DNA of 62,827 bases, counting the filler, from Collodictyon triciliatum (taxonomy: Eukaryota), in the NCBI GenBank assembly GCA_043381765.1. It is 4 parts of 4 records of this genome, joined end to end, with 100 filler letters (N's around TTAATTAATTAA, not from the genome) between each part and the next. Parts side by side here need not be neighbours in the genome. Positions count along the whole stretch, not along the records: positions 50,279 to 61,418 come from JBHJMP010000967.1; 3 more parts are not named here. One strand, written 5' to 3'. The position numbers and the translations under genes are program-made. Positions 37,638 through 57,200 of the stretch are shown here, one piece after another. Positions within the stretch are counted from its first letter, which is position 1; each line of letters starts with the position of its first letter. The notes beneath the pieces are model-generated. The model was given only the letters and a program-made list of their open reading frames with translations, did not search any database and had not been told where the DNA came from.

Positions 37638-44655
<7,018 letters not shown>

Positions 44656-50491: not shown

Positions 50492-53047
50492 CTGGTCGCC
50501 CATCTCTTAGTGAGATTGCTGCCCATCCGTTCTTCCGATCTGGACACGTCCCCAAAAGCATCCCCACAAGCGCCATGAAAACAACACCGTCTTTCCTCGA
50601 ATCTGCTCCTTACGACTCGCCTCCCACTGTAGCAACGAGTGCGATAGCTGCACCCATCACGACACACGCGCGCCTCAGCGTGGGCAACGAATGCACAGAC
50701 AAAGAGAACCATGCAAATGCCAATGTTATCGCAAATGCAGATCATGACAACATAGAAAGACTTGAGCAAGCCTTCCATCAGAAACTCGACTTGAAGCACG
50801 AGCCGAAGATTCCCACCCGTGGAAGCCAGAATTCGAACCCAAGCAATTACGACAGCACAGTGCCCTTGCCTACACGGGCAGCTTTGGCTCCAACTTCCTC
50901 ACTGGCCTCATCGTCTCCTTTCGCATCGAGACCAACTGCAGGAATTACTCCCCGCTCGCTGGCCATCGCCGCTGGTTCTAACCCATCGCCCACCGGAAAT
51001 CCAAAAAGCACAGAGACTCAGTCAACTCAGGTCCAACAGCCCATCACAACCCAGGCACAGTCATACACTCCACGCGCTGTGCCCAATTTTGCAACTTCAA
51101 CACCAACCACACTCAAGGATTCCAAACCGAACAGCTGTTTAAAGAGCGATGCAAATGGAGTCATCGAAGCCTACCGCTCAGAGTCGCGCGGCCGTTCTCG
51201 CTTGTCTCCCACAAGTATGATGCCAGTTGATATCCCTAATTGAATCTGTTAAATATTTAGGACATGAAAACATATTACACTTCCCCCATTATTCTACCTC
51301 ATATTGAGGAAAGAGAGAAGAACATGCACGTCATGAGAAAAATGACACTTTTCTTTTTATCAGACCCATCAGAGCAAGTACAAGTACAGGGACAAGCAAC
51401 ATCATCGCATCCTGCTGTTGGCGGAAAGACCAAAGAATCAAATACTGAACAGGCACATGCGACTGAAGCCAAGGCAGATATCCCAGACAATTCACCAGAC
51501 TTGGACGAAGACGATCGTGGAAATCTGACCTTTGTGCACCAGACCCTTGAAAACTACGCCAGTGGGAAAGCCTCATCTGTTGGTGAATGCCAAAAGATTG
51601 GACGCAATGAGACACCTGCTCTGAGTCGGTGTTTCTATGTGACATTAGATGTTCCATCCATTTCATACATCTCATCACCTATTATCCTTTCTAACCAAAC
51701 TTTCCACTTTTTAAGACACTTTGTTACATTTTATAAATTGTTTTCTCCTTGATTTTGTTTAATTTTTATTTACCGATTCGGTCCACAATTACAAACCGCA
51801 TTTAAGAAACCATTACAACTCTTTTTTTTATAAGCGCCCCTACCTTTGGACATTTGAAGACATCCTGCATAAAAACTAACTTTTCATTCATAGATTCCGA
51901 CGCAGTCTCAAATGAGAACGGTGAGATTTCAAATGCCAGTATTTTGTGGATTACAAAGTGGGTCGACTATTCAAACAAGTACGGCCTCGCCTACCAACTC
52001 AGCAGTGGCATCATCGGTGTCTTTTTCAACGACCAAACAAAGATTGCGCTCAAGTCAAACAACGAGTATGATATTTATTCTCTATCTACAAATTGCATGT
52101 ATCTTCCAAGATTTAAATATTTTACTGCTGTTGTTTACTTCGTGTCCAAACAATTTAATTAAAACAGGTTCAATTAAAACAAATAAGCATTTCATCAGCA
52201 TTCAGTACAATCCTGTATTTGATGCTTAACCCAGTCAAAAATTCTACTGAGTGCGTTTCATTTCCTTCTAGATCGTTCGATTACATCCCTTTCATACGCG
52301 GCTCGTCCGAAGAACATCGCGAATCCTACACTCTGACACAATTCCCACCTACACTCCAGAAAAAAGTCACTCTTCTGCAGTATTTCAGGGATTATATGAG
52401 GGAAAATGCTGGCGCTAATCCTACATCTGCTTCTTCTGCACCATCGACCAGCAACGAGAGCTCTATTCCGGCGGTGTATGTGAAGAAGTGGCTTCGCACC
52501 AAGCACGGGATGGTTTTCCGACTGAGCAACAAGAATGTTCAAGTACTTTGCGTTCAATACACACGAAATATACAGAGTAAATCGTCGCCGACTTTAATTC
52601 GCTACCTTATTCTTTCTCATGGTAAAATGAACTAAACGCTTTTTTTTTTTAAAAAAACAAAACAAAACAAAACAAACGCAGGTGAACTTTTTCGACCATA
52701 CAAAAATTATTCTATCGAACGACGCCCAAATTGTGACATACATAAACCGAAACAAACACATGACCACGCACTCCATCTCCTCGGTTATGCGTGGGCAGTC
52801 GTCAGATCTACTGAGTCGATTAAAGTACACCAAGGTATAGCTCCTTCGAATCCTCTTGTCCAAAAATCTGCGTTCGTTACCTCCCTTTACCGCACACACA
52901 TTAGAAAAGAATTGAAATATTTTTTCTCTTCACAACACCGAAATTCTTTTCACTGAAATGTATTTGAAATGCCTTCTTTCCCTCTCCTTACCTTAAAATT
53001 ATTCTGAACCATCGCAGGAGGTCCTATTCCAACTTCTCAGCAAGTAG
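50492..53047 (+). CDS. PLK1: Polo-like kinase, C-terminal part (end of kinase domain, linker, two polo boxes); 5' truncated
   Basis: Kinase subdomain XI RPSLSEIAAHPFF. Polo box 1 WITKWVDYSNKYGLAYQLSSG.IGVFFNDQTKI...LQKKVTLLQYFRDYM. Polo box 2 VYVKKWLRTKHGMVFRLSNKNVQVNFFDHTKIIL...RLKYTKEVL. Confidence 0.93.
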
Positions 53048-53844
53048 AAAACCTTCAATTGAATGAACAAAGTCTTTCGTCTCTTTTTTCCATTTCTCCC
53101 GTCTGTTTTGCTCATCAATGTATCCTTGTTCGCGCACAAAAGGATTGGAATTCGAAGAAAAGCTCTATAGTCTTTCTACATTTGATACCCAGCTGCTTCG
53201 CCATTTTACCTTCCCTTCTTGCTCCTATTTCGAGGTTGACTAAATTCTGCCACACTCTGCGTCATGTGCCATTCGCATGGCTGGGAATATGTAGGCAGAC
53301 AGCATTAAGTTGCTGTTGTCTATTAGTTAGTCCACTCAACTTCCTCTTCCCATTAAACGAAACCAAAGCGCAGCCGGTGAAACATTATCCTTCATTTACA
53401 CCTCTTGCGTTAACCAGCAGAGGGCGAAAGGTTGGAGATTTCACAAAAAAAATTGTCCAACTTTCTCAACCTGCACTTTCTGGGAGAGCAAGGAATCGAA
53501 TATCAAATCCGTCACAACAGAGCCACCCACCATTCTGCAAACCTTCCTAACATTTCATCCTTTTTGCATTCCCAAAGCATCTTTTTTTTTTATTTTTATA
53601 TCCAATAACACGAGCATCACAAATTTTTGCCTCTCTGCATCTAATCCGTGCGGAGAGCATAACCTTGTGTACAAATAAATCCTCAAGCTTTCCCAATATA
53701 CAACACGCATGAAATTGATGAGCATTTAATATTCTCAAGCAAAGAGCAAGATAGCACCATAGCACAGTCGCATGATATTCAGCCTCAATTTATTTCCCTG
53801 AACAAGCGAAGGGCTTTTCATTGTGTAATTCCCGACTCGGTGAT

Positions 53845-54195
53845 TTAGTCGCTCTGGGACAGGCTTTTGATGTCACCAGCAGCACGATTGCGTCCAAACG
53901 GACAAAGTGAGATGGAGCTTGTCTCACCAAAGTATTCCGACGGCAACATAAAGGCACGCGAGTAGGAACGTCCGATCAAATGGCTCTTGTGGTAGATTTC
54001 CACATAGTCCACACTGGCATCGCATTGCCATTCTATCAGAGTGTCAGCAACATGAATTCCTTTGTCCAGGCTTGACGCATTCCAAATGAGTTTTGTAGTC
54101 ACATCTCGAACCTACACAAATTTTGCATGATTAAAACTTTCCATTTTGTACGAGGCGCTTGTCGCACCAACGCTTGGAAGATAAATGGTGTTGTC

Positions 54196-54293
<98 letters not shown>

Positions 54294-57200
54294 TGTCTTT
54301 CTATTGATGAACATCGCACTTGCGGCGCATAGCTCTCCTTTCCTTTTTGTGTCCCCATGAATACATGTCCGATGCTTGTCAAGCCTGACTCTGGTCCACC
54401 CGGTCCGTGCTCTGACTCATGCAGACAAACATTGATGCGAGAAATTGTGGCCTCTTTGATTGCACTGACAGGAACCTCGAAGCGACGAATTTTCCACTGT
54501 GTTTCAGGGACGTCGCTTTCGCAGTACAAAACATCTTCAAGTGCGGAGAGCGGCATGTTTTGAACATTTGGGTGGGCGCCTATCGCGGTGTGGTGGAGGT
54601 GGATGAGGTCTCCAGAGGGCAATTCAAGCACCAGATACAACCCATGAGAGTTTTCATCGGAAATACTGTACTCAATCACAAGGATATCGTGTCCAACAAG
54701 ACTGACTTGGCACTCGAAGATGCTTAGAATTGCGTATCTTTCGCCTCCATGGAAAGACCCAACCCAGGCCCAGGAATTCCCTCCATCAAAAACGGTGCTG
54801 TAATTTGGGCCGTATGTTCTAATAAACTGGCAACCAGCGGTGGGTTGAATGCTGTGATTAGGTTGTACATGTTGCTCCAGCATGTTGGCCCATTTGGCCG
54901 ACTGAATCACCTGCGTTAGGGAGTATGATTTTCAGTTTGTTTTCATTTTATCAAACCACACATTACTTGAGAAAAGGATGAAGAAGCACGGTCATATACT
55001 TTTCTTAACTGCGTCTCATATTTTTATGTTTACCTTTCCTCTGCGATAGAAACTGTTTCCAATTCCTTGGCTAAAGTTAGTGTACAGAGGAAGTACTCCA
55101 GGTATGCATCTTGGTGCAATCTTTGTGGCGATAGAACCTATACAAAAAAGATAAAAGTCATGTCAAGTAAGTTTTTTTTCGATACTAATCAGCACGATTT
55201 TATAACATGAGATATAAGACATCACACGGACCGCAAAGATTGCGAGGTTTTTCGATAAAGATTGCCGTTCCATCAATAACCGTTCCATAATGACCAGCCC
55301 AGTACTCGACATCTTTTCCGCCATCCTCTAAATATATGTAGCGCAGGCCTCTTCCATAAGAATGGAATTCTTTTTGCACACTTTGCCAGCTTTCCAAGGC
55401 AGTCAATATTCCGGTGTGGAATGAAGCTATGGCTGCATGGTTTTCATCACGCAGTTCGATTTGAACATAAAACAAATCCTTGAAGTTTGGTCCAGTTCCT
55501 TTGAACCAATCCTCAACGATAATTCTTGGCTGATATTCGTCCAGAAGCGTCGAATTGAACCCATCAACCTCCAATAAGTTTAACTCGATACATCGTTTGT
55601 TCCATTCGTACGAAGTGATGAGCATATCCCCACCAAACCGAGAGCCTGTAATTGTCTTCCAGCCGCCGCCACCGTTTTCACGTGAGCACCAACCGTCACT
55701 CTCAAACTTGCTCATCTTCCCACACAGCAAGTCTAACATGTTTCCTTCATTAATAAAAACTTTTTTTTTTTTTTTGCTATTATGGTGGTTAGTTTTAAAT
55801 TTCTAGTTGATGTAAAATTGTGAAGAAGGCTGGGTTCAAGTTTTGAATGTAGTGCTGTTGTTATAGAGTGGCATGTGCTTTTCAAAATATAAATGAAATG
55901 AGCAAATACTGACCATGCCATTGAAGACCCATCCAAAACCGGTCTTCAGACATTTCAAATCGCAGGCGACAGCCTTCATGCCCTTTGTTGCTTTCAAAAG
56001 TCCAGCCTGGGGCAAAAAGGGCCACGGATGTTCCACTTTTTTCAATAACTTCAAGCGCCTTAATTTTATTTCATGTGAATTAAGCGATGCATGGCGTTTA
56101 CAAGGAATGTACGAACTTGATGGGTGGGTTAATCATCCTTTTCCCAATCATTAAGCGGTCCACATTTGGGGTTTCAGAAAAGGTAATATCGATCAATATC
56201 ACTATCTATCTTCATATGTTCCAACAATGAAACCAAACCCACGCACACATAAAACAATAAATAATAAAAAAAAAATTTTTTTGGCTACAGTTAATGCATG
56301 AATACATCTAACCTTGATAGCATCGTATCCACCACCTCCAAAAGTGCCTCGGCCAAAAATGTCGATACCCATGTATATTTCACGACAACGTGACGGCCTC
56401 AAAGAAATGGACTCGCTGGGATAATTTTCCTTCCAAGCATCTAGGGTGATTTCTATTAGAGTTTTCTACATATATGTCTTTGCATCATTTAAGAACAATA
56501 TCATCTTTTGTCATGGACTTTTCAGAGTGTATGAACTGAGATGTATGGAAATCGTATGGTGTGTTTTCGTACAATTGGCAAAGAATCCATCGCATTCGTC
56601 AAAAAAGTGGCAATTTTCTTCATTAAGTCTGTTTTGCCACTTAAGTTCGCCTGCATGCGTCACACTATCGTACCAAATGACAGTCCATTTTGGATTATGT
56701 GCTTTCATAGCTTTGGTTAGCTCCCTCACAAAGACTCGCATTTTGTTGACCAGGGACCCAGACAGTTTGTTTTCTATGTTGAGGAACCAACCGTCTAATT
56801 TGTAGTATTCTGCCACTCGGACGAGTTTGTTGATGATGAACATGAGTTTTCCAGTAGCCTCACAACCTTCTACAGCGCATCTTTGGTACTCTGGCTCGTC
56901 TTCCTCCAACAAACGAATGCTTTCTTTTTCTCCTTCATCCCATTCGGTGATATAGGTTCCCTGCGTGCAATAAAATCACATGTTCATATATTGCGATGAG
57001 AAGTCAAGTTCTCCTTTGTTTTGACTGACTAGCGAAAAGAGGAAAATGCGTGGGCCAATCAGACCAGAATGCCATTTTTTTAAAGTGGTAGATAGAAAAA
57101 AGAAAAGAAAATAAGCAGAAAATTAATGAGTTTGTCACACTATCAAGTCATTACCATGATTTCGACTCCGTTTTTATGAGCAGCATGAACCCAACCGATG

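Follow-up and report, generated by a model that had tools for sequence, protein, structure and literature searches.

The endo-beta-N-acetylglucosaminidase (ENGase) gene of the freshwater protist Collodictyon triciliatum carries, inside a hydrolase of family GH85, an FBA domain of the family that forms the sugar-binding domain of Fbs1. The gene lies on the minus strand of the stretch of DNA analysed here (the window; 62,827 nucleotides, filler included, from four parts of assembly GCA_043381765.1), in the part that comes from JBHJMP010000967.1. A first-pass annotation made from the sequence alone had proposed this fusion from one exon lying between the end of the GH85 barrel and the segment that follows it. 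The fusion is real and expressed, and is a lineage-wide variant of the enzyme. What appears to be new is the description of an ENGase-FBA fusion; database entries for such proteins were already public under automatic names.

The predicted product of the FBA exon scored 83.9 bits with the Pfam FBA profile (PF04300; cut-off 32.4, E 1.5e-23) over profile positions 21-173 of 175, and in a six-frame scan an FBA profile found one place only in the window. GH85 matches were found in the flanking exons (E 1.7e-37, 1e-08, and 1.1e-08), as had been expected, and the E-values exclude a chance match. The best solved sequence relatives of the exon product are mouse Fbs1/FBXO2 (2e31_A, E 2.3e-21), FBXO6 (8zuh_A, E 5.7e-17), and FBXO44 (E 3.1e-15). 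An AlphaFold2 model built from a 29-row alignment has ten strands, with a predicted local distance difference test score (pLDDT) of 91.2 and a predicted template modelling score (pTM) of 0.86. Using Foldseek, this model matched 1umi, 1umh, and 2rj2 with TMq 0.84, that is, the fold of the Fbs1 sugar-binding domain, a ten-stranded antiparallel beta-sandwich. The ten best matches in the PDB were all sugar-binding domains of Fbs1, Fbs2, or FBG3 (TMq 0.77-0.84), and the next were the bacterial carbohydrate-binding modules CBM22, CBM4, CBM16, and CBM61, at TM ~0.5.

Contigs of four RNA sequencing runs were placed on positions 53800-58700. Runs X1 and X2 belong to one study, labelled 'RNA?', and X3 and X4 are freshwater metatranscriptomes of a second study; the shares of X3 and X4 are small (0.07 and 0.06), and they were taken for bridged joints only, with no habitat claim beyond the library label. 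The spliced contigs and the alignment with the orthologue of Diphylleia rotans give a minus-strand gene of 11 exons (58656..53845) coding for 998 amino acids. Spliced contigs of X1-X4 cross each of the 10 introns. On the plus strand the nine joints listed are all CT..AC, equivalent to GT..AG borders in a minus-strand gene, and the tenth is found in X1 record 4; the border of intron 1 was moved by one base to obtain GT..AG (X1 joint 58339|58010). The joined exons make 2997 nt, or 998 codons, and the sole stop is terminal. We read it as a nuclear protist gene that is expressed, with the GH85 and FBA domains found by Pfam lying in one transcript in the RNA contigs.

The FBA exon had been placed at 55232..55744, with a length of 513 nt. 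The 3' end at 55232 was exact, but the RNA joints put the 5' end at 55732, making the exon 12 nt shorter, with 501 nt (167 codons) and phase 1 on both sides. The phase-1 introns predicted on both flanks therefore hold for the shorter exon, and 55744 is also an AG acceptor in the same phase as 55732. Spliced contigs of the two studies span both borders of the exon, so that its inclusion in transcripts, which the first-pass annotation had left to be checked, is observed. The 5' joint (55914|55732) is present in X1 (150+112 letters) and X4 (88+39 letters), and the 3' joint (55232|55137) in X1 (side 77) and X2 (side 91); the acceptor reads TGTTAG|AC and the donor, after 55232, GTCCGT. Among the joints listed for the X1-X4 contigs there was no exon-skipping joint (55914|55137), with the reservation that contigs can hide rare forms. 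Translation of 55233-55742 on the minus strand recovered the peptides quoted earlier, and the exon does sit between '...DRFWMGLQWH' at the barrel end and 'GSIATKIAPRCIPGVLPLYTNFSQG'.

The order of domains in the protein is a putative LamG-like domain, GH85 barrel, FBA (about residues 512-678), beta-sandwich domain 2, and C-terminal Ig-like domain. Residues 4-998 align with residues 2-986 of the Diphylleia rotans protein (P0001; 986 aa, transcript-derived) at 47.4% identity, and P0001 passes the Pfam profiles Laminin_G_3 (E 2.6e-09), GH85 (E 3e-90), and FBA (E 1.2e-26). As the first-pass annotation had it, no F-box was seen: Pfam found none in the exons of the window and none in P0001 over its full length. 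The motifs DGWFLNIE and IWYDS align with DGWFINQE and MWYDS of Endo-A (3fha), matching the catalytic residues that we take to be numbered N171, E173, and Y205 in Endo-A, in agreement with the alignment. Since the catalytic Asn, Glu, and Tyr are kept, the protein looks like an active endo-beta-N-acetylglucosaminidase, and by homology it is probably cytosolic.

Profile A2, built from 46 ENGases, covers residues 14-607 of Endo-A (E 1.3e-80). It locates the FBA insertion in the linker that joins the barrel end ('...FW') to domain 2, whose first strand reads 'VPFVTHFNTG' in Endo-A and 'LPLYTNFSQG' in the window. Residues 679-998 of the window protein align to the C-terminal part of P0001 (E 1.2e-60), which gives two beta-sandwich domains after the barrel. 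The AlphaFold model of full-length P0001 (pLDDT 85.2, pTM 0.86) matched the three-domain core of Endo-A with TMt 0.74-0.79, and its FBA insert, taken separately, matched the sugar-binding domain of Fbs1 with TMt 0.80-0.85. At the other end, residues 1-200 of the window protein align to residues 2-194 of P0001 (E 1.6e-18); single window exons gave no Pfam match to PF13385 (Laminin_G_3), a profile that is passed by P0001, P0082, P0163, and P0167. This putative LamG/ConA-like domain (57785-58656, minus strand) lies upstream of the region covered by the first-pass annotation. The order Laminin_G_3, GH85, FBA is seen in P0001, in P0082 of Balamuthia, and in P0163 and P0167.

The distribution of the fusion was explored with a HMMER search of 1.84 billion representatives using the FBA exon as query, in which 676 proteins matched at E <= 0.001. 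Among the best 150 of these 676 together with P0002, 11 also match the GH85 segment of P0001. In a search with residues 200-720 of P0001, nine of the 120 matches listed have a precomputed PF04300, and among the same 120 no ENGase named for an animal, plant, or fungus has it, which agrees with the earlier statement that the two are separate proteins in animals. A pooled set of 276 proteins was then selected for these domains; 135 of them match the GH85 segment of the window and 26 of the 135 also match the FBA segment, a proportion that is not a natural frequency because the pool was selected. The 26 proteins form 17 clusters at 90% identity, and in each of the 26 the FBA match comes after the GH85 match. 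The named members are Diphylleia rotans, Arcella, Rhizamoeba, Copromyxa, Balamuthia, Naegleria, and Willaertia. Lineages were looked up for Diphylleia (CRuMs), Balamuthia (Amoebozoa), Willaertia (Heterolobosea), and Amorphochlora (Rhizaria); Arcella, Rhizamoeba, and Copromyxa are presumably Amoebozoa, and we take Naegleria to be a heterolobosean.

When 15 more GH85 proteins were scanned with Pfam, 12 scored above the FBA cut-off. The Amorphochlora protein (P0175) scores 17.5 bits, below this cut-off, with E 7.6e-08 in the 276-protein pool only, and the presence of GH85-FBA in Rhizaria is tentative. No Pfam FBA match was obtained for P0002 or for P0262 of Dictyostelium. P0002 was found by phmmer in the full database (E 3.8e-11), and residues 665-803 of P0262 (Dictyostelium discoideum DDB_G0268520) appear, with a custom profile only (E 1.7e-07), as a low-complexity, degenerate FBA remnant at the same insertion place. 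A word-index search found no near-length relatives (91-291 aa) of the FBA exon product, a result that reflects the limit of the word index and is no evidence of absence. The novelty implied by the first-pass annotation is lowered by the spread of the architecture in protists and by UniProt, where two members are automatically named 'FBA domain-containing protein' (Naegleria fowleri A0A6A5ATW8 and Arcella intermedia A0A6B2KYC7). In the literature on ENGase or GH85 with FBA we found no paper on the fusion, in a search that was thin in subscription journals.

Within the FBA domain, conservation was mapped on 15 aligned ENGase-borne copies. G78, P81, and D85 in the beta5-beta6 loop and E142, W144, G146, and G149 in the beta9-beta10 loop are invariant; S40 and W43 in the beta3-beta4 loop are found in 14 of the 15 and H147 in 13. 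The mean conservation of the beta3-beta4, beta5-beta6, and beta9-beta10 loops is 0.63, 0.71, and 0.74, and that of the strands 0.25-0.59 for nine of the ten, with 0.72 for beta9. By the model and the Fbs1 study (PMC4603797), these three loops make up the ligand end of Fbs1. Since the best-conserved loops coincide with the ligand end, the pattern argues for a conserved ligand site in the ENGase-FBA domains.

The pocket residues are less telling. The first-pass annotation had stressed a Tyr-Trp pair, and according to PMC4603797, Fbs1 cannot do without Phe177, Tyr279, and Trp280 to bind GlcNAc-GlcNAc. In the sequence alignment the window has Tyr, Tyr, and Trp at these positions, followed by Ala in place of K281. 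The residues are therefore present, but they make a weak argument: the same paper gives Tyr, Tyr, and Trp, followed by Ala236, for FBG3/FBXO44, describes it as having no sugar-binding activity, and puts this down to differently arranged loops. The pair in the window is therefore real without being diagnostic. Among the 15 ENGase-FBA domains the binding-site Trp is kept in 15, and the F177 position is Y, H, or F in 7, 6, and 2.

Taken together, fold and conservation make it rather probable that the enzyme has in FBA a built-in carbohydrate-binding module, which would concentrate N-glycan substrates at the GH85 site; a lectin role is plausible, if unproven. What is inserted in the linker between barrel and domain 2, as one symmetric exon, is a whole Fbs1-type beta-sandwich. 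The loops at its far end could bind the N-glycan, through either the core or the high-mannose part, so that glycoproteins with exposed glycans, or free oligosaccharides, would be held close to the GH85 site, which would then cleave the GlcNAc-beta1,4-GlcNAc bond. The benefit might lie in proximity, in a hand-over, in the binding of another glycan of the same substrate, or in recognition of the mannose part. Also in favour are the constant place of FBA after GH85 in the 26 pool proteins and the use of FBA as an add-on in other proteins. A supporting precedent is an independent fusion of a lectin with GH85, the GH85 plus jacalin protein of Planktothrix.

Several observations weigh against this account. 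Pocket residues alone prove nothing, given what PMC4603797 says of FBG3, and the position of Tyr279 is Tyr in 4 of the 15 ENGase-FBA domains, the others having N, H, T, G, R, K, or Q. Lectin pocket and active site would compete for the same disaccharide; one chitobiose cannot occupy both together, so that a hand-over or second-glycan model is needed. Dictyostelium keeps only a degenerate FBA insert that lacks the Trp loop, from which it follows that the module can decay without loss of the enzyme. Lastly, the probable cytosolic location is drawn only from homology and from an N-terminus that aligns to a folded domain and not to a signal peptide.

The domain could instead be a non-lectin module similar to FBG3, which would bind a protein partner or unfolded polypeptide or act as a mere spacer between barrel and domain 2. 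We regard this as possible, although unlikely. It would fit the sharing of the three essential residues by FBG3, which lacks sugar binding according to PMC4603797, the variation of the Tyr (4 of 15), and the pTM of 0.86 of the full-length model, which suggests a fixed, packed domain over a free, tethered module; it fits poorly with the concentration of the most conserved columns in the loops of the Fbs1 pocket and the invariance of the Trp (15 of 15), with N-glycans being the sole known substrates of the host enzyme, and with carbohydrate-binding modules being the closest folds outside FBA. A second alternative is that the FBA loops extend or gate the enzyme's own cleft, on the side of the reducing-end GlcNAc-Asn/peptide or of the product, and so set substrate choice or regulate activity with no distant recruitment. 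This seems improbable to us: the insertion directly behind the last barrel helix, the compact P0001 model (pTM 0.86), and the strictly kept position of the insert in 26 of 26 pool proteins would all suit it, but Endo-A, Endo-D, and the animal and plant ENGases function without such a domain. That the FBA exon is an artefact, by mis-assembly, as a pseudo-exon, or as a mostly skipped exon with a mature protein devoid of FBA, is barely conceivable, since contigs from two studies include it with both junctions spliced and the transcript-derived orthologues of Diphylleia, Rhizamoeba, and Copromyxa have FBA in the same place; the RNA evidence effectively refutes it as the main form.

To examine the origin of the fusion, 45 GH85 barrels were placed in a quick maximum-likelihood tree. 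The Diphylleia ENGase, the closest relative known, comes out as sister to the window gene, with a Shimodaira-Hasegawa-like approximate likelihood ratio (SH-aLRT) support of 100 and 70% identity over the barrel. The FBA label needs 5 changes on this tree, against 12.2 in shuffles (0 of 500 as low), with the deep branches open. The Dictyostelium ENGase nests among the FBA-bearing forms, and a single clade of 14 FBA forms plus Dictyostelium was not rejected by the approximately unbiased test (p-AU 0.585; log-likelihood 3.12 above the free search), Dictyostelium having been joined to the constrained clade after the tree was known. An FBA tree of 157 domains was made with FastTree after removal of ten entries that were redundant cluster members or partial domains, and one of its branches sets all 17 ENGase-borne FBA domains apart on a side of 23 rows. 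Of the six other rows there, P0109 and P0151 match the C-terminal part of ENGase and are probably truncated ENGases. These data are compatible with a single old fusion, which they leave unproven. A broader scenario, speculative and rather doubtful, is that the fusion arose once before the split of CRuMs, Amoebozoa, and Heterolobosea and was lost towards animals, fungi, and plants. The Fbs-type lectin would first have been a built-in substrate sensor of a cytosolic ENGase, allowing it to act directly on unfolded glycoproteins without a prior peptide:N-glycanase (PNGase) step. The SCF-Fbs ubiquitin ligases of animals would then be a later re-use by exon shuffling, and such mobility would have left its mark in the symmetric phase 1-1 exon.

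The FBA domain of the window belongs to the same family by sequence as those of Fbs1/FBXO2 and Fbs2/FBXO6, with the same fold (TMq 0.80-0.84) and aromatic residues at the F177, Y279, and W280 positions. Unlike Fbs1 and Fbs2, it has no F-box, it is inserted inside a hydrolase, and it has Ala in place of Fbs1 K281; E142 and H147, invariant or nearly so in the ENGase-FBA forms, are Val and Trp in Fbs1. As no F-box was found, the window protein is not an SCF subunit; upstream of FBA it has the GH85 barrel. FBG3/FBXO44 shares the fold (TMq 0.80) and, according to PMC4603797, the residues Tyr, Tyr, Trp, and Ala, but is an F-box protein without sugar binding.

With the animal and plant ENGases and with Endo-A and Endo-D, the window protein has in common the barrel with Asn, Glu, and Tyr and the two beta-sandwich domains that follow; those enzymes have a short linker where the window gene has the 167-residue FBA, and they are without the LamG-like N-terminus. 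The GH85-FBA proteins of Diphylleia, Arcella, Naegleria, Willaertia, Balamuthia, Rhizamoeba, and Copromyxa have the same architecture and insertion point as the window gene; they carry automatic database names ('FBA domain-containing protein', 'hypothetical protein'), and we found no functional study of them. The Planktothrix sp. protein (P0259), with GH85 and a jacalin-like lectin (E 1.9e-16), is likewise a case of a glycan-binding module on an enzyme that removes N-glycans, although its lectin has a fold unrelated to FBA and is attached at the C-terminus, not inserted. Animal PNGase, with its mannose-binding PAW domain, is another deglycosylating enzyme to which such a module is appended.

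In the animal machinery that deals with glycoproteins expelled from the endoplasmic reticulum, ENGase and the Fbs lectins play separate parts. A natural fusion that is widely conserved offers a 'Rosetta stone' hint at a single pathway for sensing and cleaving the glycan core. The interplay of ENGase and Fbs matters for NGLY1 deficiency: PMC5398483 describes ENGase acting directly on glycoproteins to yield N-GlcNAc proteins, and a partial rescue of Ngly1-null mice by Engase deletion. The fusion is a simple system for asking whether an Fbs-type domain steers ENGase to unfolded glycoproteins, and it could yield a self-targeting ENGase for glycan remodelling.

A Pfam survey of FBA proteins covered 67 of the best 150 FBA matches, each of at most 1600 aa and together within the residue limit of the scan. 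An F-box is present in 3 of these 67, and over most of its range the domain is thus not 'F-box associated'. A sorting tail of the type IX secretion system (T9SS) was found in 18, bacterial cadherin or Ig arrays in 7, NAGPA glycosidase in 3, EGF repeats in 3, GH85 in 2, and phospholipase D (PLD) in 1; FBA stands alone in 21, and 9 have other combinations. By this survey FBA is a general add-on module, often extracellular and bacterial, and several hydrolases seem to use it in this way. Proteins with two or three FBA domains have them joined to the NAGPA phosphodiester glycosidase (P0008, P0011, and P0029) or to phospholipase D (P0063), and Laminin_G_3 and FBA occur together in 5 bacterial proteins of the survey.

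The exons of the gene are given in Table 1. A model that ended exon 10 at 54365 and started at an ATG at 57733 was ruled out by the RNA contigs and the Diphylleia alignment, which give 54320 and a start at 58656.

Table 1. Exons of the ENGase-FBA gene in the window, with the splice joints seen in RNA contigs (run in brackets where noted).
Exon	Positions	Strand	Content	Evidence
1	58340..58656	-	ATG 58654-58656; start of putative LamG/ConA-like domain	Joint 58339|58010 (X1); aligns with N-terminus of Diphylleia P0001
2	57785..58011	-	Remainder of putative LamG-like domain	Joints 58010|58339, 57785|57672
3	57391..57672	-	Linker and start of GH85 barrel	Joints 57672|57785 (X1, X2), 57391|57201 (X1); Pfam GH85 E 1e-08
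4	57155..57201	-	GH85, 47 nt	RNA joints, open frame
5	56573..56960	-	GH85 core; catalytic Asn 56778-56780 and Glu 56772-56774 in DGWFLNIE, Tyr in IWYDS	Pfam GH85 E 1.7e-37
6	56313..56440	-	GH85	Joints 56440|56573 (X1, X2, X3), 56312|56057 (X2)
7	55914..56058	-	End of GH85 barrel (…FAPGWTFE…DRFW…)	Pfam GH85 E 1.1e-08; joint 55914|55732
8	55232..55732	-	FBA domain (501 nt, phase 1-1); codons 55302-55304 (Tyr) and 55299-55301 (Trp) match Fbs1 Y279 and W280	RNA joints on both sides
9	55034..55137	-	Start of ENGase domain 2 (…LPLYTNFSQG…)	Joints 55137|55232, 55034|54910; aligns to Endo-A 'VPFVTHFNTG' via profile A2
10	54320..54910	-	Beta-sandwich domain 2	Joint 54320|54111 (X1, X2); aligns to C-terminal part of P0001
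11	53845..54111	-	C-terminal Ig-like domain; stop codon 53845-53847	Weak GH85_C match, E 0.055; P0001 alignment runs to residue 998

Two repeats lie in introns of the gene. Within the last intron (54112-54319), an (ATT)n microsatellite without interruptions runs for about 120 nt (54184-54306). Intron 1 holds an AAT/GAT-rich repeat at 58239-58337, which would give in-frame poly-Asn/Asp if read but has been removed by splicing in the X1 contig. A little upstream of the ATG, this contig runs beyond 58664 for 23 letters that are unmatched in the window and could be a 5' exon, a spliced leader, or an adapter. An open reading frame for a calcineurin-like metallophosphoesterase (58687-59487, plus strand; Pfam E 3.4e-05) and the ENGase gene (ATG at 58656) are arranged head-to-head, and the short upstream region that the two share is possibly a bidirectional promoter. 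Elsewhere the window, with a GC content of 0.398, has ordinary eukaryotic genes: a polo box at 51806-52162 (plus strand, E 1.3e-11), a PXA domain at 41921-43306 (minus strand, E 3e-33), a cyclin at 883-2577 (minus strand, E 2.9e-05), and an Arm repeat at 7965-8633 (plus strand, E 2e-05).

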